Shown piece by piece: positions 6,843-58,540 of a stretch of 64,000 nt of DNA. The DNA is from Acidimicrobiia bacterium (GTDB lineage Bacteria > Actinomycetota > Acidimicrobiia > Spongiisociales > ZC4RG35). The first letter of the stretch is position 1; the number at the start of each line of letters is the position of its first letter. Below the pieces are notes generated by a model, which saw only the letters and a program-made list of their open reading frames with translations, ran no database searches and had not been told where the DNA came from. A program made the position numbers and the translations under genes. The stretch spans positions 4,216 to 68,215 of the forward strand of contig DASZOM010000041.1 of assembly GCA_035550735.1 (NCBI GenBank), given 5' to 3'.

Positions 6843-6870
6843 GAGAGCCCCGGCGTAGGCCGGGGCTCTC
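6843..6870 (-). terminator. intercistronic stem-loop (12-bp perfect stem, GTAG loop) between substrate-binding gene and ATPase gene
   Basis: gagagccccggc-gtag-gccggggctctc, followed on the minus strand by ttcgttataagg. Probable partial terminator/attenuator that raises binding-protein expression relative to the other subunits. Confidence 0.45.
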
Positions 6871-8937: not shown

Positions 8938-11415
<2,478 letters not shown>

Positions 11416-11514
11416 TCGCTTCTCCTGAGCCTGGCGAATTGGATTTTACCACCGGCCGGTGACTGACCCCTACCTCGGTGCCCAGCCTGCCGATCCGTAA
11501 TAGCATCGTCACCA

Positions 11515-12504
11515 ATGGAAGACCTCCAAAGCCTCGTTGGTATTCCCCGAATCTGGGACCAACTGGGCCGTGTCGAGGAACGCCTGCTGGAAGCATCGGC
11601 TGCCGACGACCCATACCTGACGAAGATCGCGCAGCATCTCCTCCTCGCCGGCGGGAAGCGCTTCCGGCCCCTGCTCGCCCTCCTCGGCGCCGAGTTCGGC
11701 GAGCCCCGGGACCACCGGCCGGTCGAGGCCGGCGTGGCGGTCGAGCTGATCCATGTCGGCTCGCTGTATCACGACGACGTCATCGACGAGGCCGACACCC
11801 GGCGCGGGGCCAGTTCGGCCAATGCCAACTGGACCAACTCGGTGGCGATCCTGGCCGGGGACTTCCTCATGGCCCGCGCCTCCGAGGTCGCCGCCACCCA
11901 CCTCAGCCAGGAGTCGGTGCGTCTCCTCGCCGCGACCTACGCCGAGCTGGTCGAAGGCCAGACCAGGGAGCTGCAGCTCACCGACGACCTGACCCACGGT
12001 CTCGACGAGTACCACGAGGTGATCGGGGGGAAGACCGCCTCCCTGATTCGGACGTCAGCCCGGCTCGGGGCCATGGCGGCGGACGCCAACCAGCCGGTCG
12101 TCGACGCCCTGTCCACCTGGGCCTGGGAGGTCGGCATGGTCTTCCAGATCGCCGACGATGCCCTCGACCTCGTCGCCGACGAGGAGACCATTGGCAAGCC
12201 TGCCGGATCCGACATTCGTGAGGGCACATTCACCGCCCCGGTGCTGCGGGCCGTGGCCGGCCCTGACGGCCACCTGGTGACCGAGCTGCTCGCGACGGGT
12301 CGCCCTTACCAGGACGAGACGGTGGCCGAGGTCATCCGATTGGTGCGGGAGGGCGGTCATGTCGACGCCGCATTGGAGACGGCCACCACCCGTCTCGCCG
12401 TGGCCGACTCGGCATTGGCCGGCCTGCCCGCATCGAAGCCACGCGAGATCCTGGAGCGTCTCGGTGCGTATCTCCTGGAGAGGGTGGAGGCGGCCCGGGT
12501 CTGA
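11515..12504 (+). CDS. trans-polyprenyl diphosphate synthase (GGPP/heptaprenyl synthase family)
   Basis: First and second Asp-rich motifs LYHDDVIDEAD and FQIADDALD. Occupies the position where mycobacteria encode lsr2. Confidence 0.85.
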   Translation: MEDLQSLVGIPRIWDQLGRVEERLLEASAADDPYLTKIAQHLLLAGGKRFRPLLALLGAEFGEPRDHRPVEAGVAVELIHVGSLYHDDVIDEADTRRGASSANANWTNSVAILAGDFLMARASEVAATHLSQESVRLLAATYAELVEGQTRELQLTDDLTHGLDEYHEVIGGKTASLIRTSARLGAMAADANQPVVDALSTWAWEVGMVFQIADDALDLVADEETIGKPAGSDIREGTFTAPVLRAVAGPDGHLVTELLATGRPYQDETVAEVIRLVREGGHVDAALETATTRLAVADSALAGLPASKPREILERLGAYLLERVEAARV

Positions 12505-12518
12505 GACCGTCGGTATTC

Positions 12519-12567
12519 GTTCTGTGAGGGTTTGTGCACGCACCGTGTCCGAGGACACTCACAGAAC
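12519..12567. repeat. REP-like nested-hairpin element, copy A (GTTCTGTGAG...inner hairpin...CTCACAGAAC)
   Basis: 10-bp outer inverted repeat enclosing a GGTT-led spacer and the inner palindrome gtgtcc-ga-ggacac. Lies 3 nt downstream of the lysS stop; a second copy is at 15760-15807. Confidence 0.6.
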
Positions 12568-12570
12568 GGG

Positions 12571-14043
12571 TTACGACCGTGGTCGCAGTGTGGGAAAGAG
12601 GATCACTTCCCGAATGTGGGGCTGGTCGGTGAGCAGCATCACCAGCCGGTCCACCCCGATTCCCAGGCCCCCGGTAGGGGGCAGCCCGTACTCCAGTGCC
12701 TCGATGTAGTCGAGATCGACCGGATGCGCCTCCTCGTCGCCACCCGTGCGGGCCGCGGCCTGCTCCTCGAACCTCTGACGCTGATCGTCGGGGTCGTTGA
12801 GCTCGCTGAACGCATTGGCATACTCGGCGCCGGCTATCACCAGCTCGAAGCGGTCGGCGATGCGGGGATCTCCGGGGTTGCGGCGGGAGAGAGGTGAGAC
12901 CTCGGCGGGGGGATGGGTGGCGAATGTGGGCTCGACGAGAGACGGCTCCACCAATTCCTCGTACAACTCGTAGATGAGCCTGCCCGAGGACCACCCCTCC
13001 TCGATCTCGAGACCCCGATGGCGGGCGAAGTCGAGGAGGTATCCCGGATCGGTGTCGAGGTCGACCGGCTCACCGACGACCTCGGACACGAGCTCGAAGA
13101 CGGTCGCCCTCCGGTACGACGGTGCCAGGTCGATCTCGGTGCCCTGGTAGGAGATGACCGTGCTCCCGGTCACGGCGACCGCAACCGCACCGATCACCTC
13201 TTCGATCAGAGCCATGATGTCGGTGTAGTCGGCGAAGGCTTGGTAGGCCTCGAGCATCGTGAACTCGGGGTTGTGGGTGGAGTCGATGCCCTCGTTCCTG
13301 AAGATCCTCCCTATCTCGAAGACCCGCTCCATTCCCCCGACGACGAGTCTCTTCAAGAACAGCTCCGTCGCGATCCGCAGGTACATGTCCATGCCGAGGG
13401 TGTTGTGATGGGTGCGGAAGGGCCGGGCGGTCGCCCCGGTCGCCTGGTGGAGCAGCACTGGTGTCTCCACCTCGACGAACCCGCGGTCCTCGAATTGCCG
13501 CCTGAGCTCGGACACCACCTTCGCTCTCGTCGAGGCGACCTGGCGGGCCTCGGGGTTGACCATGAGATCGACATAGCGGCGCCGGCTCCGGGTCTCCGTG
13601 TCGACGAGCCCATGCCACTTGTCGGGCAGAGGACGCAACGCTTTCTGCAGGAGAGTCAGCTTGCCGACCCGGACACTCAGCTCTCCCCGCTTCGTGGCCA
13701 TCACGCTGCCGGTCGCCCCCACCCAATCACCCAGGTCGAGCTGGCCGAAGCTGGCGACCACGTCCTCACCGGCGGTCGCGGTGTCCACGAACAGCTGGAT
13801 CGAGCCGCTCATATCCTGGAGTGTCCCGAACTGGAGCCTCCCGAACGAGCGGTGGAGCATGAGGCGCCCGGCCACGGTGACGATGTCGTCGGTCTCCGTG
13901 CCCGGCTCGATGTCCGCGTAGGCGTCGTGGAGCTCGGACGCGAGATGGGTTCGGTCGAATCGGTGCGGATAACCGCCGGCATCGATCGACGCCCGGTGTT
14001 TCTCTCGCCGACCCTCCACGAGCCGCTCTTCGCTCTCGCTCAT
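12571..14043 (-). CDS. lysS: lysine--tRNA ligase (class II)
   Basis: OB-fold N-terminus and class II motifs (FRNEG, GGLGIGVDRLVMLLT). Confidence 0.95.
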   Translation of the reverse strand: MSESEERLVEGRREKHRASIDAGGYPHRFDRTHLASELHDAYADIEPGTETDDIVTVAGRLMLHRSFGRLQFGTLQDMSGSIQLFVDTATAGEDVVASFGQLDLGDWVGATGSVMATKRGELSVRVGKLTLLQKALRPLPDKWHGLVDTETRSRRRYVDLMVNPEARQVASTRAKVVSELRRQFEDRGFVEVETPVLLHQATGATARPFRTHHNTLGMDMYLRIATELFLKRLVVGGMERVFEIGRIFRNEGIDSTHNPEFTMLEAYQAFADYTDIMALIEEVIGAVAVAVTGSTVISYQGTEIDLAPSYRRATVFELVSEVVGEPVDLDTDPGYLLDFARHRGLEIEEGWSSGRLIYELYEELVEPSLVEPTFATHPPAEVSPLSRRNPGDPRIADRFELVIAGAEYANAFSELNDPDDQRQRFEEQAAARTGGDEEAHPVDLDYIEALEYGLPPTGGLGIGVDRLVMLLTDQPHIREVILFPTLRPRS

Positions 14044-14053
14044 CGAAACGCGA

Positions 14054-14941
14054 TCATGGCATGGCCGTCAGCGTGCTCGCTTCGTCGAGCAGGATTCCCC
14101 GATCCGGTACCGGCTTGCCATCGACCATGTCGAACGCGACGTTGTCGATGAGCCGGACCGCCCCAACGTGGGCTGCCACGGCGAGCACGGCAGGCTGGTC
14201 CAACATCTCGATCGGCTTCATGGTCTGTTGCGAGGCGAGCTTGACGTAGTCGACCTCCAGGCTCTTCATCGAACGGGCCACGGTCGACTCGAGACGAGCC
14301 CCCCTCCTCTCCCCGGCGTCGGCCTGCTCGGCTGCCTGGAACAGCCCCTTGGAGATGGCCAGTGCCTCGTAGCGGTCCCGCTTCCCCAGTCTGACGTTGC
14401 GACTGGAGAGGGCCAGGCCGTCCGGCTCGCGCACGACGGGCGCCTCGACGATCTCGATGGGGAACCTCAGGTCCCGGACCATCGCCCGGAGGACCGCCAG
14501 CTGCTGGGCGTCCTTTCGACCGAACATGGAGAGGTCCGGCTGGAGACCGGCGAACAGCTTGGCCACGACCGTGGCGACACCGACGAAGTGCCCGGGCCTG
14601 TGCTTGCCTTCCATCTCGTCGGTGACCCCGATCACCTCCACCGTGGTGACCGATTCCCCGGGATACACCTCTGCTTCGGGGGGCGCGAAGAGGATGTCGA
14701 CACCGTGCTGGGCGGCGAGCGAGGCGTCTCGCTCCTCGTCTCTCGGATAGGCCTCGAAGTCCTCGGGCTGGTTGAACTGGGTCGGGTTGACGAAGAGGGA
14801 GACCACCAGGGTGTCACACCGCTCGCGGAGTCGGTCCATCAACAAGAGATGACCCTCGTGGAAGAACCCCAGGGTGGGCAGCAACCCCACCCTGCCCTGA
14901 TAGCGGTGGCGCGTCTCGTCGAAGCCGCGGGTCACTTCCAC
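14054..14941 (-). CDS. panC: pantoate--beta-alanine ligase
   Basis: HxGH-type motif FFHEGHLLLM and the PanC fold. Overlaps the upstream DUF2520 gene. Confidence 0.9.
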   Translation of the reverse strand: MEVTRGFDETRHRYQGRVGLLPTLGFFHEGHLLLMDRLRERCDTLVVSLFVNPTQFNQPEDFEAYPRDEERDASLAAQHGVDILFAPPEAEVYPGESVTTVEVIGVTDEMEGKHRPGHFVGVATVVAKLFAGLQPDLSMFGRKDAQQLAVLRAMVRDLRFPIEIVEAPVVREPDGLALSSRNVRLGKRDRYEALAISKGLFQAAEQADAGERRGARLESTVARSMKSLEVDYVKLASQQTMKPIEMLDQPAVLAVAAHVGAVRLIDNVAFDMVDGKPVPDRGILLDEASTLTAMP

Positions 14942-15720
14942 CGGTGCAGGTCCTCCTCGCGTCCGGCCCGGATCGTGGTCGCCTCGGCCATGAGGCGAAA
15001 CTGCCGGCCCACGTACTCGGAGACATCGTGGGCCGCGGTGAGATGCCCGATCACGGTGTCGATGTCACCACGGGCGATCGGGCCCGTCAGCGAGGCCGCC
15101 GGCCCCTTCTCGAAGACGTTGGCCACCGCCCTCTCCACCAGCGGCCGGGACACCTTGGGGTCGATGCCTGCCGAGTGGAAGAGGTCGGCGGACACCGCCA
15201 GCGACGTGACCACGAAGTTGGCCGCTGCGGCGGCGGCGGCGTGATAGGCGGGACGGGCTGCGTCGTCGAGCCGGAAGGGCTCCATTCCCAGGGTGACGGC
15301 GAGATGGGTGAGGACGTCGGCGCCGAGCTGGTCACCGTCGATGCCCACGAACGAGCCTTCCAGGGCCTTCGCACCGCTCTCGGCGTCGGGAAGGGATTGG
15401 AGGGGGTGAAACCCTCCGACCGCGGTGCCTCGCTCCTGGATCTCGCGCAGCGCGAGCACCGGGGTGAATCCGGAGAGGTGGGCGGCCACCCCCACTTCGG
15501 ACACATGAGGGGCGATTCGGGCGGCTACCTCGGGAATCGCCTCGTCGGTGACCGCGATGAGGACGATGTCAGCCTCGGGGAGCTGGACGTCCCAGTCCAG
15601 TTGCTCCCATCGATCGACAGGATGACGGCTGAGCACCCCGACGATGTCGTGCCCGGCCGCTTCGGACGCCAACGCGATGGCGCCACCTGCCCGACCCGGG
15701 CCGACGACGATCAGACGCAT
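14932..15720 (-). CDS. Rossmann-like NAD(P)-binding DUF2520-family protein (ketopantoate-reductase-like, panC-associated)
   Basis: N-terminal GxGxxG (VVGPGRAGGAIA) and Ala-rich C-terminal domain. Conserved upstream partner of panC in actinobacteria. Confidence 0.65.
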   Translation of the reverse strand: MRLIVVGPGRAGGAIALASEAAGHDIVGVLSRHPVDRWEQLDWDVQLPEADIVLIAVTDEAIPEVAARIAPHVSEVGVAAHLSGFTPVLALREIQERGTAVGGFHPLQSLPDAESGAKALEGSFVGIDGDQLGADVLTHLAVTLGMEPFRLDDAARPAYHAAAAAAANFVVTSLAVSADLFHSAGIDPKVSRPLVERAVANVFEKGPAASLTGPIARGDIDTVIGHLTAAHDVSEYVGRQFRLMAEATTIRAGREEDLHRWK

Positions 15721-15759
15721 GGATGGGCTCGCCGGGGCACGGCGGCGAGGCTACATCCA

Positions 15760-15807
15760 TTCTGTGAGGGTTACTGGACCCTCTGTGTCCACAGACACTC
15801 ACAGAAC
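15760..15807. repeat. REP-like nested-hairpin element, copy B (ATTCTGTGAG...inner hairpin...CTCACAGAAC)
   Basis: Same architecture as copy A; inner hairpin gtgtc-caca-gacac shows compensatory changes. Lies 13 nt downstream of the stop of the basic-protein gene. Confidence 0.6.
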
Positions 15808-15820
15808 CGTTTGCGCGGGG

Positions 15821-16153
15821 CTACTCCTCCTGGAGCTGGTTCGGGGTCACCACCGGCCAGACCGCGTCGACGGCGGCTTTCTGGTCCTTGTAGCCATATC
15901 GGCGTTTCCAAAACTTGGTCTTCCACACCCGGTACCTGCGCTTCGCGGGGCTCTGGTGGCCGTTGCTGGTCTCGTGGGTGCGGGTCCGCCGCTCCTCGGG
16001 GAGGACGACCCCGTCCGGGTCGTCGAAACTGTGGAGCACCTGGGCGGCGGCGTGGCGAGTGGCGCGATGCTGTTTCTTGCGCTCCTCGTGGCTGGGACGG
16101 CTCTCGTCGTATCCGGGGATTCCCTGCCGATGCTTCCGCGACCTCTTGGCCAT
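15821..16153 (-). CDS. hypothetical highly basic small protein (110 aa, Lys/Arg/Trp-rich)
   Basis: AGGAGG RBS 6 nt upstream of ATG, and high GC3 throughout. No confident family assignment. Confidence 0.45.
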   Translation of the reverse strand: MAKRSRKHRQGIPGYDESRPSHEERKKQHRATRHAAAQVLHSFDDPDGVVLPEERRTRTHETSNGHQSPAKRRYRVWKTKFWKRRYGYKDQKAAVDAVWPVVTPNQLQEE

Positions 16154-16263
16154 TCATAACCTCCTGTCGTGAACGTGGATTCGTCACTCACCAACACAGG
16201 GGGCGGGCCGCGGCCTGACGCCATGTCCCGAAGCTAGCAGCTACATCGGGTAGTCGTTCACGG

Positions 16264-17214
16264 TCAGAGGACGAGAGGGATGAGCCTCGACCTCACCATT
16301 TCCCGGTAGGCCCGATAGCCCGGGAAGTGCATCCGCAACCGTCTCTCCTCGTAGTCGGCCTTCACCCAGAGATAGGCGAGCAACATCAGGGAGACGGCCA
16401 ACGCCGACAGGCTTCCCAGCAGCAGCCCGGCCCCCATCGCCATGAGCACGATGCCGCCATAGATGGGATGGCGGACGAGGCCGTAGGAACCAACGGTCAC
16501 CAGGCGAGTCTGCGAACGCGGGAGCGGGCTCATCGTCAGCGAAGGGCCGAGCCGACGGCTGGCATCGAGAGCCAGCCCGACACCGAAGACGGCCAGGGCG
16601 GCGCCCATCAGCGTCGAGACCGTCACCCGGTCCGGCAGGGAGCCCTCGAGCCAGAGGACGGTGATCAACAGGGCGATGATGGCGAGCTGGCCGGCGACCA
16701 GTGCTACTGCCGGCAATCGCGGCCTGGGAGGCAGCCAGCGGCGGGCGAGGAGATCGACATCCTGATCGTCCACCTCCTCCAGGGCGACGGACGCAGAGAG
16801 CTCGTCGGACACCGGAGCCTCGGGCCAGACCTCGACGAGGGGGCGGAGCACGAACTCACGCTCCGTGGCTCGGGGATGGGGGACGGTCAGCTGCTGGGTG
16901 TGGATTGGAGGTCCGTCGGATGACACGATGTCGAGGTCGAGCGTCCTCGGCCCCCAGCGCACGTCTCGTTCCCGGCCCTCCTGCTGCTCGATCTCGTGGA
17001 GACGGGCGAGGAGCTCGAAGACGTCGAGCTCGGAGTCGAGGGCCACGACCGCGTTGAGGTAGGGGCCCTGCTCGGGCCCGCCGACCGGAGCGGTCTCGTA
17101 CAACGACGACACCACCATGCCGGCTCCGATCCGGGTCAGGGCGGCATGGGCCCTCTCCAGGTGGGCGAGACGGTCGCCGACGTTGGAGCCGAGACCGATG
17201 GCGTAGCGGGTCAC
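16264..17214 (-). CDS. folK: HPPK (FolK) fused to a C-terminal polytopic ICMT/PEMT-like methyltransferase-family membrane domain
   Basis: N-terminus MTRYAIGLGSNVGDRLAHL...TEREFVLRPL is HPPK. The C-terminal ~150 aa have 4 TM segments with RHPIYGG and EERRLRMHFPGYRAYREMV motifs in one continuous frame. GTG start overlaps the folB stop. Confidence 0.75.
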   Translation of the reverse strand: MTRYAIGLGSNVGDRLAHLERAHAALTRIGAGMVVSSLYETAPVGGPEQGPYLNAVVALDSELDVFELLARLHEIEQQEGRERDVRWGPRTLDLDIVSSDGPPIHTQQLTVPHPRATEREFVLRPLVEVWPEAPVSDELSASVALEEVDDQDVDLLARRWLPPRPRLPAVALVAGQLAIIALLITVLWLEGSLPDRVTVSTLMGAALAVFGVGLALDASRRLGPSLTMSPLPRSQTRLVTVGSYGLVRHPIYGGIVLMAMGAGLLLGSLSALAVSLMLLAYLWVKADYEERRLRMHFPGYRAYREMVRSRLIPLVL

Positions 17215-28591: not shown

Positions 28592-31153
28592 ATGCCAAAG
28601 AGCCTCGTCATCGTCGAGTCGCCCACGAAGGCAAAGACCATCTCGGCTTTTCTGGGGTCTGATGCCACCGTCGAGTCGTCGATGGGTCACATCCGCGACC
28701 TCCCGCGATCGGCGGCGGAGATCCCGGCCAGCGCCAAAGGAGAGGACTGGGCTCGTCTCGGGGTGGACGTCGACCACGACTTCGAGCCGCTCTATGTGGT
28801 TCCCAAGGAGCGGAAGAACCAGGTGAAGAAACTCAAAGACCTGCTGAAGGATGCCGACGAGCTCTATCTGGCCACCGACGAGGACCGCGAGGGGGAGGCC
28901 ATCGCCTGGCATCTGGTCGAGGTGCTCAAACCAAAGATCCCGGTGATGCGGATGGTGTTCCACGAGATCACCAAGCCCGCGATCGAAGAGGCCTTCTCCA
29001 ATCCCCGGCAGTTGGACGAGCGGCTGGTCTCGGCCCAGGAGGCACGGCGAATCCTCGACAGGCTGTACGGATACGAGGTCTCGCCGGTCCTTTGGAAGAA
29101 GGTGCAGCCCCGGCTCTCCGCAGGCCGGGTGCAGAGCGTGGCGGTCCGCATCGTCGTGGAGCGGGAGCGGGAGCGCATGGCCTTCGTCCCCGCCGGCTAT
29201 TGGTCAGTGGAGGGCTCATTCGCCCCCGCCGACGATCTCGACAAGACCTTCCCGGCGACCCTCTACGCCATCGACGACGCCCGGGTCGCCACCGGCCGGG
29301 ACTTCGACTCCGACGGGCGTCCCAAGGCCGATGTCGTGGTGCTCGACCGGCAACGGGCGACCGATCTCGCCACCACCCTCGAAGCGGCCGAGTTCCGCGT
29401 CGAGTCGGTGGAATCCAAGCCTTACACCAGACGGCCCTACCCGCCCTTCAGGACATCGACGCTGCAACAGGAGGCGGGGCGGAAGCTCCGCTTCTCCTCG
29501 TCACGGACGATGTCGGTCGCGCAACGTCTCTACGAGAACGGCCACATCACATACATGCGGACCGACTCCGTCGAGCTCTCCGATACGGCGGTCGCCACCG
29601 CCCGAGCCCAGGTGAGCAAGCTCTACGGCGACCAGTACCTCTCTCCCACACCCCGGAAATACACGGGCAAGCAGGCCAAAGGAGCCCAGGAGGCGCACGA
29701 GGCGATACGTCCCGCCGGAGACTTCCTGACCCCGGAGCAACTGGCGGTCCGGATCGGCAAGGACGAGGCCGCACTGTACGACCTGATCTGGAAGCGAACC
29801 GTTGCATCGCAGATGGCGGATGCCAAGGGGGTGTCGGTGTCGGTTCGCCTGGCCGCCACCGCCGACGGCGGGGTGCGGGCGGTGTTCTCCGCATCGGGCC
29901 GCACAGTCACTTTCCCCGGCTTCCTCCGGGCCTATGTCCAGGGCAGCGACGACCCGGAGTCGGAGTTGGACGACAAGGAGTCGATCCTTCCTCCGTTGTC
30001 CGAAGGGGACCCGCTCGCAGTGGAGCGTCTCGAGCCCACCGGGCACGAGACCCGGCCGCCGGCTCGGTACACGGAGGCCTCGTTGGTGCAAAAGCTCGAG
30101 GAGCTTGGGGTGGGTCGCCCGTCCACGTACGCCTCGATCATGACCACGATCCAGGACCGCGGCTACGTGTTCAAGAAGGGCGCGGCCCTCGTCCCCACCT
30201 TCACCGCCTTCGGTGTGGTGACGCTCCTGGAGAAGCACTTCCCCAACCTCATCGACTACGAGTTCACCGCCGAGATGGAGTCCGACCTGGACCGGATCGC
30301 CAGCGGTGAGGAGGAATCGGTGCCCTGGCTGTCCGCCTTCTACTTCGGCGACGACGGTCTCAAGGCGAGGGTGGCGAGTCGTCTCGACGAGATCGACCCG
30401 AGGGTGATCAACTCCATCCCGATCGGCACCGACGACGAGGGGACGGAGATCGTCGCCCGCATCGGGCGCTACGGGCCCTATGTCGAGCGTGGCGAGGAGC
30501 GGGGATCGATCCCGCCCGACTTGGCTCCTGACGAGGTCACCGTGGAGAAGGCACTCGAGCTCATCGAGACGCAGAACCGGGGTGACAAGATCTTCGGCAC
30601 CGACCCGGAGAGCGGGCTCACCGTCTACGGGAAGACCGGTCGATTCGGGCCCTATGTCCAGCTCGGCGAGCAGGAAGAGGGATCGAAGGAGCGGCCGAAG
30701 CGCGCCTCGTTGCTCAGTGGGACGACCATCGACGAGCTCGGGCTCGAGGACGCCTTGAGATTGCTGTCCCTCCCCCGCACCGTGGGAACCGACGAGCAGG
30801 GTCAGGAGATCCTCGCCTTCAACGGCCGATACGGCCCCTACATCCAGAGAGGTGACGATCGGCGCAGCCTGGAGGGCGAGGACCAGCTGTTCAGCCTCAC
30901 CGAGGAGGAGGCATTGCGACTACTCGCCGAGCCGCCTCGCCGTCGCGGCCAGGCCCGGTCGTCGAGTGTGCGCGAGCTCGGCGAGGACCCGGTCTCGGGC
31001 AAGAAGGTGTCGGTTCGATCCGGCCGCTACGGCCCCTACGTCACCGACGGCGAGGTCAATGCCTCCCTGCGCAGGGACGACTCACCGGAGGAGATCAGCA
31101 TCGAGCGCGCCGCCGAGCTGTTGCAGGCGCGGCGTGAACGCATCGGCAGCTAG
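28592..31153 (+). CDS. topA: DNA topoisomerase I
   Basis: Toprim (LVIVESPTKAKTI), catalytic Tyr region and four C-terminal GRYGPY repeats typical of actinobacterial TopA. ATG at 28592. Confidence 0.95.
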   Translation: MPKSLVIVESPTKAKTISAFLGSDATVESSMGHIRDLPRSAAEIPASAKGEDWARLGVDVDHDFEPLYVVPKERKNQVKKLKDLLKDADELYLATDEDREGEAIAWHLVEVLKPKIPVMRMVFHEITKPAIEEAFSNPRQLDERLVSAQEARRILDRLYGYEVSPVLWKKVQPRLSAGRVQSVAVRIVVERERERMAFVPAGYWSVEGSFAPADDLDKTFPATLYAIDDARVATGRDFDSDGRPKADVVVLDRQRATDLATTLEAAEFRVESVESKPYTRRPYPPFRTSTLQQEAGRKLRFSSSRTMSVAQRLYENGHITYMRTDSVELSDTAVATARAQVSKLYGDQYLSPTPRKYTGKQAKGAQEAHEAIRPAGDFLTPEQLAVRIGKDEAALYDLIWKRTVASQMADAKGVSVSVRLAATADGGVRAVFSASGRTVTFPGFLRAYVQGSDDPESELDDKESILPPLSEGDPLAVERLEPTGHETRPPARYTEASLVQKLEELGVGRPSTYASIMTTIQDRGYVFKKGAALVPTFTAFGVVTLLEKHFPNLIDYEFTAEMESDLDRIASGEEESVPWLSAFYFGDDGLKARVASRLDEIDPRVINSIPIGTDDEGTEIVARIGRYGPYVERGEERGSIPPDLAPDEVTVEKALELIETQNRGDKIFGTDPESGLTVYGKTGRFGPYVQLGEQEEGSKERPKRASLLSGTTIDELGLEDALRLLSLPRTVGTDEQGQEILAFNGRYGPYIQRGDDRRSLEGEDQLFSLTEEEALRLLAEPPRRRGQARSSSVRELGEDPVSGKKVSVRSGRYGPYVTDGEVNASLRRDDSPEEISIERAAELLQARRERIGS

Positions 31154-58453: not shown

Positions 58454-58540
58454 CGCGATCAAGCTAACCCCTCCTGGGGACATGAAAAGCGATGAGCCCG
58501 CCGGGCGGCGGGCTCATCGCGAGGAGGGGTCCCTTCTTGC

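Follow-up and report, generated by a model that had tools for sequence, protein, structure and literature searches.

A family of 53-bp extragenic palindromes dispersed at the 3' ends of genes, mainly in Acidimicrobiia-labelled genomes

What does a long palindrome do in the short spacer between two converging genes of an actinobacterial genome? Actinobacteria have few canonical terminators, and the ending of their transcripts is still debated. The locus that raises the question lies in a stretch of 64,000 nucleotides from an Acidimicrobiia bacterium (the window). Here lysS, a class II lysyl-tRNA synthetase gene by its Pfam families (12571..14043, minus strand; NCBI product name 'lysine--tRNA ligase [Acidimicrobiia bacterium]'), converges on a polyprenyl synthase gene (11515..12504, plus strand), and the 66-nt spacer between them is occupied by a palindromic element, copy A. 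A second element, copy B, lies at the other end of the same gene group. In minus-strand order the locus reads folE, folP, an unnamed gene, folB, folK, a gene of 110 amino acids (15821..16153), copy B, a DUF2520 (Rossmann-like) gene (14932..15720), panC for pantoate ligase (14054..14941), lysS and copy A, beyond which come the convergent polyprenyl synthase gene and clpC. All three named genes between the copies, of which DUF2520 is the first downstream of copy B and panC sits in the middle of the bounded segment, are on the minus strand, as is the 110-aa gene, the last of the folE-folP-folB-folK cluster, whose stop codon is 11 nt from copy B. On the other side, 36 nt separate copy B from the start codon of DUF2520. 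The locus is present as identical copies in at least 23 metagenome contigs, and copies A and B are identical across 10 of 10 metagenome contigs of this organism.

The original prediction, made from the letters of the window, described a 49-bp nested-hairpin element immediately 3' of lysS. Its position between convergent genes was confirmed. The lysS stop codon is indeed close, with 3 nt between it and the 49-bp unit and 1 nt between it and the 53-bp unit defined below, but the element is equally 3' of the polyprenyl synthase gene, whose stop codon is 12 nt away. The element itself was found at 12519-12567 as described, with perfect 10-bp arms (GTTCTGTGAG...CTCACAGAAC), and it was matched in none of 100 dinucleotide-preserving shuffles of the window. 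The spacer of copy A begins with GGTT, as had been noted, and so does that of copy B. The claim of a second copy with the same arms held in part: 9-bp arms (TTCTGTGAG/CTCACAGAA) enclose a 29-nt spacer at 15760-15806, but the tenth outer base is A instead of G, and the perfect arm of copy B is thus 9 bp rather than the 10 bp of copy A. Similarly, the letters of the proposed inner hairpin, gtgtcc-ga-ggacac, are present, but a 2-nt loop is sterically impossible and the geometry is therefore that of 5 bp with a 4-nt loop. In copy A this hairpin is GTGTC-CGAG-GACAC (12545..12558), its last C doubling as the first base of the outer 3' arm, and in copy B it is GTGTC-CACA-GACAC (15785..15798). The arrangement GTGTC-N4-GACAC, with differing loops, is common to copies A and B and to these two only; with n = 2, it may be either a genuine variant of this genome or a product of shared ancestry.

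Exact, fuzzy and covariance-model searches of the 64-kb window returned only copies A and B, the next-best hit of the covariance model having E = 0.59. Two other repetitive features of the window are recorded here in their own right. At 151-274 lies an imperfect palindrome of 124 bp, whose 54-nt arms are 80% complementary and which carries GCCCACTATTGGGC at 171-184 and 241-254; it sits in a 157-nt spacer of lower GC between two minus-strand genes and may be a structured RNA or a pair of operators. At 30463-31057 there are four copies of a 37-nt unit (CGG.CG.TACGG.CCCTA.GTC...) at a spacing of 174-198 nt, which are read as a protein motif repeated inside a coding region rather than as a DNA element.

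A search across genomes showed that the two copies belong to a dispersed family of 53-bp palindromic extragenic repeats, present mainly in Acidimicrobiia-labelled MAGs. One genome per species was searched with the pattern TTCTGTGAG-N20-45-CTCACAGAA, which allows 26 spacer lengths. At least 123 matches were obtained in at least 119 stretches, and 71 of the 123 listed have a spacer of exactly 29 nt. Dozens of further copies in related genomes share the arms, the length and the position after a stop codon, which bears out the candidate of an extragenic palindrome family that recurs at the 3' ends of genes. The size of 49 bp did not stand. Conservation in the flank profile reaches three bases outward on each side, where the core is preceded by CC(G) and followed by (C)GG; the family unit is therefore one of 53 bp with the consensus CCGTTCTGTGAG-N29-CTCACAGAACGG. 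The base of the stem is accordingly 12 bp, made up of the nine bases fixed by the search pattern and the conserved CCG/CGG flank. As family units, copy A spans 12517..12569 (TCGTTCTGTGAG-N29-CTCACAGAACGG), enclosing the 49-bp element, and copy B spans 15757..15809 (CCATTCTGTGAG-N29-CTCACAGAACCG) and is oriented like copy A; neither unit is assigned to a strand.

An alignment of 69 distinct copies (A1) was used to build a covariance model (R1). Both window copies score higher on the plus strand, copy A with 53.2 bits (48.2 on the minus strand) and copy B with 57.0 bits (50.4). In 557 kb of ascertained loci, R1 detected four more full copies and two that are partial or cut. A metagenome scan added three more family members, and found none from the window's own organism. 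About three quarters of the labels of 80 family loci are Acidimicrobiia, Acidimicrobiales, Acidimicrobiaceae or Iamiaceae MAGs, and the remainder are mostly labelled only Actinomycetota or Actinobacteria, with one Nitriliruptorales; a few carry Acidobacteria or Gammaproteobacteria labels, these being bin labels as given. Individual genomes contribute at least 4-6 stretches among the matches listed, and the 64-kb window holds two copies, from which a copy number of tens per genome is a rough estimate. Two matches in viral contigs were dismissed as chance, both being non-hairpin and within called ORFs. The same stem base TTCTGTGAG/CTCACAGAA also occurs in other repeats. Those of Thermoflexus (L020, L023, L035, L037, L057 and L074) are 44 nt long with flanks AATT...AATT. 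Those of six further loci (L044, L048, L073, L108, L116 and L129) are 55-62 nt long, most being flanked by TCAATCCGGC...CCCTCAAGAT, and their hosts are Bradyrhizobium, Pseudolabrys, alpha-proteobacterial MAGs and one Solirubrobacterales-labelled MAG. Since flanks and lengths differ, the Thermoflexus and alpha-proteobacterial repeats were set apart as families of their own and were not counted as evidence of a universal reader; the common stem base may be either a coincidence or the mark of a shared reader.

The structure common to the family is a single hairpin. When a 25-pair hairpin was imposed on the 69 copies, 82.5% of cells were paired, against 67.2% in shuffled data and 33-48% with slid partners. 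Changes on both sides of a pair occupied 316 cells, compared with 151 in shuffles of the 69 copies, and all 16 of the 16 variable pairs had changed on both sides. RNAalifold independently predicted one long hairpin. The interior thus varies between copies yet remains self-complementary in register, closing on a loop of about 3 nt, and the outer pairs formed by the CCG and CGG flanks are C-G in 43 and 48 of the 69 copies. From the covariation of the interior and the RNAalifold prediction it follows that the family structure is a single hairpin of about 25 bp; the 'nested hairpin' anatomy of the original prediction was not borne out, the inner hairpin being confined to the two window copies and missing from the family consensus structure. 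In one genome (CAZAHX) the apical sequences are conserved though unpaired. As RNA, copy A is predicted to fold with -33.3 kcal/mol on the plus strand, that of the polyprenyl synthase gene (z -4.5), and with -23.9 kcal/mol on the minus strand (z -3.0), and copy B with -22.8 and -26.3 kcal/mol, respectively; z-scores of fold stability range from -3.0 to -4.5 over both strands. The upper stem is imperfect in both window copies, and in copy A its plus-strand reading includes four G-U pairs. These upper-stem G-U pairs account for the better plus-strand fold of copy A and for the higher plus-strand scores of both copies.

The position of the repeats relative to genes is narrowly defined. Genes were called with a GC3-based caller whose results for the window agree with those of JGI, and gene pairs without an element from the same loci served as the control. 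The element was found between 23 convergent, 29 co-directional and 2 divergent pairs, against 64, 211 and 74 pairs, respectively, without it (chi-square p = 3e-5); convergent pairs are enriched and divergent pairs almost absent. The 53-bp unit begins a median of 8 nt from the stop codon, with 56 of 77 distances at or below 20 nt. Eight stop codons are a TGA within the arm itself, TTCTG[TGA]G, whose final A is base 8 of the 47-nt core. No copies convincingly within a coding region were found among the family loci. Where the flanking genes are co-directional, a median of 36 nt separates the element from the start of the next gene, by start calls that are approximate; many copies therefore lie inside operons or abut very short leaders, and inside operons efficient termination is unlikely. 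In the 29 co-directional contexts there was no excess of G-U on the sense strand (16 G-U versus 25 A-C), hence no sign of RNA-level selection there, and selection at the level of RNA and of DNA is not separated by these data.

Taken with the literature on similar repeats, the observations suggest that the family is probably a dispersed palindrome resembling REP and TRIT, whose hairpin works in both directions at mRNA 3' ends and would there halt the polymerase, block exonucleases or both. Transcribed from either strand, the hairpin would give a very stable fold at the end of the message, which could stop or pause RNA polymerase, impede 3'-to-5' exonucleases, or do both, actions that have been reported of REP elements and suggested for mycobacterial TRIT. 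Between convergent genes a single hairpin could serve both transcripts. Copy A would then be the shared two-way 3'-end hairpin of lysS and the polyprenyl synthase gene, and copy B would punctuate the fol cluster from DUF2520-panC-lysS. The conserved stem base may be a recognition site for a putative factor, which would either act on the hairpin or copy and homogenise the elements. A tentative and rather doubtful extension is that the factor which recognises this 12-bp duplex is a dedicated, putative trans-acting one in Acidimicrobiia. Such a factor may be a hairpin-binding protein that makes U-tract-less hairpins into terminators or 3'-end processing sites, or it may be a RAYT-independent enzyme that copies and homogenises the palindromes. 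If a dedicated factor does exist, the genome-specific apical sequences would mirror co-evolution with it, and a hairpin-binding protein would be the 'further cellular machinery' that has been proposed, and never found, for mycobacterial TRIT.

A simple terminator role is disfavoured. The absence of a U-tract, already pointed out in the original prediction, was upheld: a terminator scan of 11400-16400 was empty, no T-run follows the element on either strand, and beyond the element the family flank profile is not enriched in T. In vitro, mycobacterial RNA polymerase requires a U-tract for termination (PMC3993855), and few Term-seq 3' ends of M. tuberculosis coincide with TRIT predictions; both count against a simple terminator, as do the lack of a G-U bias and the copies inside operons. 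Canonical hairpin-plus-T candidates do occur elsewhere in the window, at 6843-6870 and 58489-58520 (both minus strand), with stems of 12 bp and 14 bp, and this organism therefore also has L-shaped terminators.

The family is, in addition, in flux. Interior identity is 69% within genomes versus 36% between them, a value reached in none of 2000 permutations, and copies within a genome often differ by compensatory double changes. One identical 53-mer stands at non-homologous loci of different genomes (L099/L126 versus L110). Two orthologous loci of related genomes, L082 and L103, have flanks of 74-78% nucleotide identity and the same order of element, DUF559-like gene, element; the interior in each is its own genome's variant and not the other's. 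The gene between these elements encodes a DUF559/MTES_1575-like endonuclease domain (L082:2186-3237 and L103:1620-2666), and its stop codon lies inside the second element. It was considered as a mobiliser and rejected, being present in L082 and L103 and absent from every other locus examined.

Turnover is also apparent at the lysS locus itself, which was compared in relatives with 74-80% LysS identity (L133-L138). The site of copy A is filled in L136 and L138, where the arms are TTCTGTGAA/TTCACAGAA and a compensatory A-T pair replaces G-C. A possible remnant is seen there in L134 and unrelated sequence in L133, and in two relatives (L135:5999-6358 and L137:5642-6001) a gene of the Phage_holin_4_2 family, 119 aa, lies in its place between lysS and the polyprenyl synthase gene. 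The site of copy B is empty in four relatives (L135-L138), and in the other two (L133:2432-2640 and L134:2598-2820) its spacer holds a different repeat, AACCCTGGGTTG...CGCGT(ATGCAACGCGT), arrayed 2-4 times in tandem; the spacer is apparently an insertion hotspot for repeats. A separate motif, TAGCCTCGCCGCCGTG, lies just upstream of DUF2520-panC-lysS (window 15721-15756) and is conserved in all of these relatives, unchanged in the window, L133 and L138 and in variant form in the rest, and in most of them a GGCGAG of partial complementarity comes next; the motif could be the -10 element of a leaderless transcript or a small leader hairpin. From the empty and filled sites, together with the genome-specific interiors, it follows that the family turns over and spreads or homogenises, and despite this turnover the stem base and the length are constant in the recovered copies. 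Such behaviour is that of REP-like repeats and not of independently evolved terminators. No target-site duplication was detected, counts of direct repeats being low at six boundary offsets for k = 2-5; the sole exception, k = 2 at the core boundary, gave 25 matches that stem from the self-complementary CG. A motif regex applied to six-frame translations of all loci (about 0.9 Mb of scattered sequence) found no RAYT or Y1 transposase, and no transposase, autonomous element or parent IS with these ends was found at the loci examined.

These evolutionary data fit equally well a purely selfish or mechanically propagated palindrome without host function, an explanation that is possible, though on the unlikely side. 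The repeat would be copied or gene-converted between intergenic sites and survive only where its insertion does no harm, at gene 3' ends, or would target existing hairpins, and its symmetry would be upheld by template-switch repair within quasi-palindromes and not by selection. Genome-specific interiors, the 53-mer shared by non-homologous loci and the overwriting of orthologous sites by each genome's variant would all be expected of such a repeat, as would a copy B site that is empty in some relatives and taken by another repeat in L133 and L134; the missing sense-strand G-U bias and the apical sequences that CAZAHX keeps without pairing point the same way. Nevertheless, a selfish palindrome leaves unexplained why the same stem base recurs across several Acidimicrobiia lineage labels. 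The compensatory G-C to A-T change in the arm speaks against it, and so does the filling of short convergent spacers, with some hairpin there in every relative examined, and neither a transposase nor a target-site duplication nor an autonomous element was found at the loci examined.

The hairpin could alternatively act in the DNA, as a protein-binding or topological site between convergent units, with a factor on two inverted 12-bp half-sites or on an extruded cruciform. Gyrase or a nucleoid protein has been reported for some E. coli REP/BIME elements, and positive supercoils accumulate between convergent genes, where this element is enriched. The equal symmetry of the strands without a strand-specific G-U signal and an inter-arm length fixed at 29 nt also suit such a site, but binding to linear duplex would not need a self-complementary interior, and the interior covaries strongly. 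Moreover, there is no candidate protein, and stop codons within or abutting the element suit a role at transcript ends better; a DNA-level site is thus considered improbable. A structured regulatory RNA (a nested-hairpin riboswitch or sRNA) or a CRP-type operator is more improbable by far. The former might be suspected from GTGTC-N4-GACAC, kept in both window copies with a changed loop, and the latter from TGTGA and TCACA in the arms, which are CRP/GlxR half-sites. Against a riboswitch or sRNA, the inner hairpin does not belong to the family consensus, and Rfam 15 gave no match: at gathering thresholds it found only a tRNA in the window, and with E up to 10 nothing in 12300-16100 overlapped copy A or B. 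A CRP operator is ruled out by spacing, the half-sites being 31 bp apart instead of 6, and for both RNA and operator the copies follow unrelated genes in many genomes. The two-way hairpin at mRNA 3' ends remains the preferred reading.

Several uses of the family can be envisaged. Its covariance model might be used to mark the 3' ends of genes in Acidimicrobiia MAGs, and the family accounts for a recurrent motif that might confuse assembly or annotation. The stem base and the genome-specific apex offer a handle for finding the reader or copier of such hairpins. Even if it should be only a selfish palindrome, the family would be a tidy example of concerted evolution with no known transposase. 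Literature searches for palindromic repeats in Acidimicrobiia and for REP/RAYT in Actinobacteria found no description, and searches with the arm sequences returned only primers and shRNAs; the family is apparently undescribed.

It remains to place the family among known systems. An integron attC site was rejected, with GTT/AAC at the outer and not the inner end of the stem and core genes as the flanked genes. The conserved terminal inverted repeats, variable interior, intergenic location and presence or absence between relatives recall MITEs; the element is, however, one hairpin with no target-site duplication and no parent IS found, and its 53 bp are smaller than any MITE known to us. With canonical intrinsic, L-shaped terminators it shares a stable GC-containing hairpin after the stop codon that convergent genes can share. 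It differs from them in having no T/U-tract on either strand, a stem far longer than usual and a sequence conserved across genomes, which terminators do not need.

REPs are repeats of 20-40 bp with stems of 8-9 bp and loops of 4-5 nt, and they carry a GTAG or CGTC tag that is left unpaired (Di Nocera et al. 2013, PMC3733652). Most follow a coding region and separate ORFs that are unidirectional or convergent; they exist as species-specific variants and have been proposed to act in termination, mRNA stabilisation or supercoiling (PMC3733652). The present family shares with them the context after a stop codon, between unidirectional or convergent genes, and the genome-specific variants, but its unit is 53 bp with a stem of up to 25 pairs, against 8-9 bp, and a loop of about 3 nt. 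It also has no unpaired GTAG/CGTC tag: the CCG and CGG flanks pair together, leaving no unpaired conserved tetranucleotide. The REP-like candidacy put forward in the original prediction therefore holds for dispersed palindromes after coding regions, but not as strict REP membership, given the missing tag, the long stem and the lack of any RAYT found at the loci searched. Actinobacteria are absent from the main text of that REP survey (PMC3733652), and in a 2018 survey the sampled high-G+C Actinobacteridae have only IS200-type Y1 transposases of subclass 1.1, grouped with IS200 and not with RAYTs.

Compared by description alone, the closest analogue of the family is mycobacterial TRIT ('Tuberculosis Rho-independent terminator'), known from 147 palindromic, mostly bidirectional copies whose position relative to stop codons is about -8 (Gardner et al. 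2011, PMC3152330). TRIT is associated with well-defined mRNA 3' ends; its authors proposed a factor that binds the duplex and reported the motif as restricted to Mycobacterium (PMC3152330). Both are actinobacterial, conserved in sequence and structure, palindromic and devoid of a canonical U-tract, with tens to about 150 copies per genome, the figure here being a rough estimate. Both are also narrowly positioned at stop codons, and in the eight copies with a stop in the arm its place relative to the start of the 47-nt core is -8, the TRIT offset. In contrast, TRIT lies inside coding sequence, whereas most copies here follow the stop by 0-20 nt, and the family belongs to Acidimicrobiia-type MAGs, with Mycobacterium in 0 of 119 among the stretches listed. 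Set apart from TRIT by description, it is a second case of a sequence-conserved, U-tract-less two-way hairpin at stop codons. The family is thus an actinobacterial counterpart of REP elements and TRIT, and not a new kind of system.
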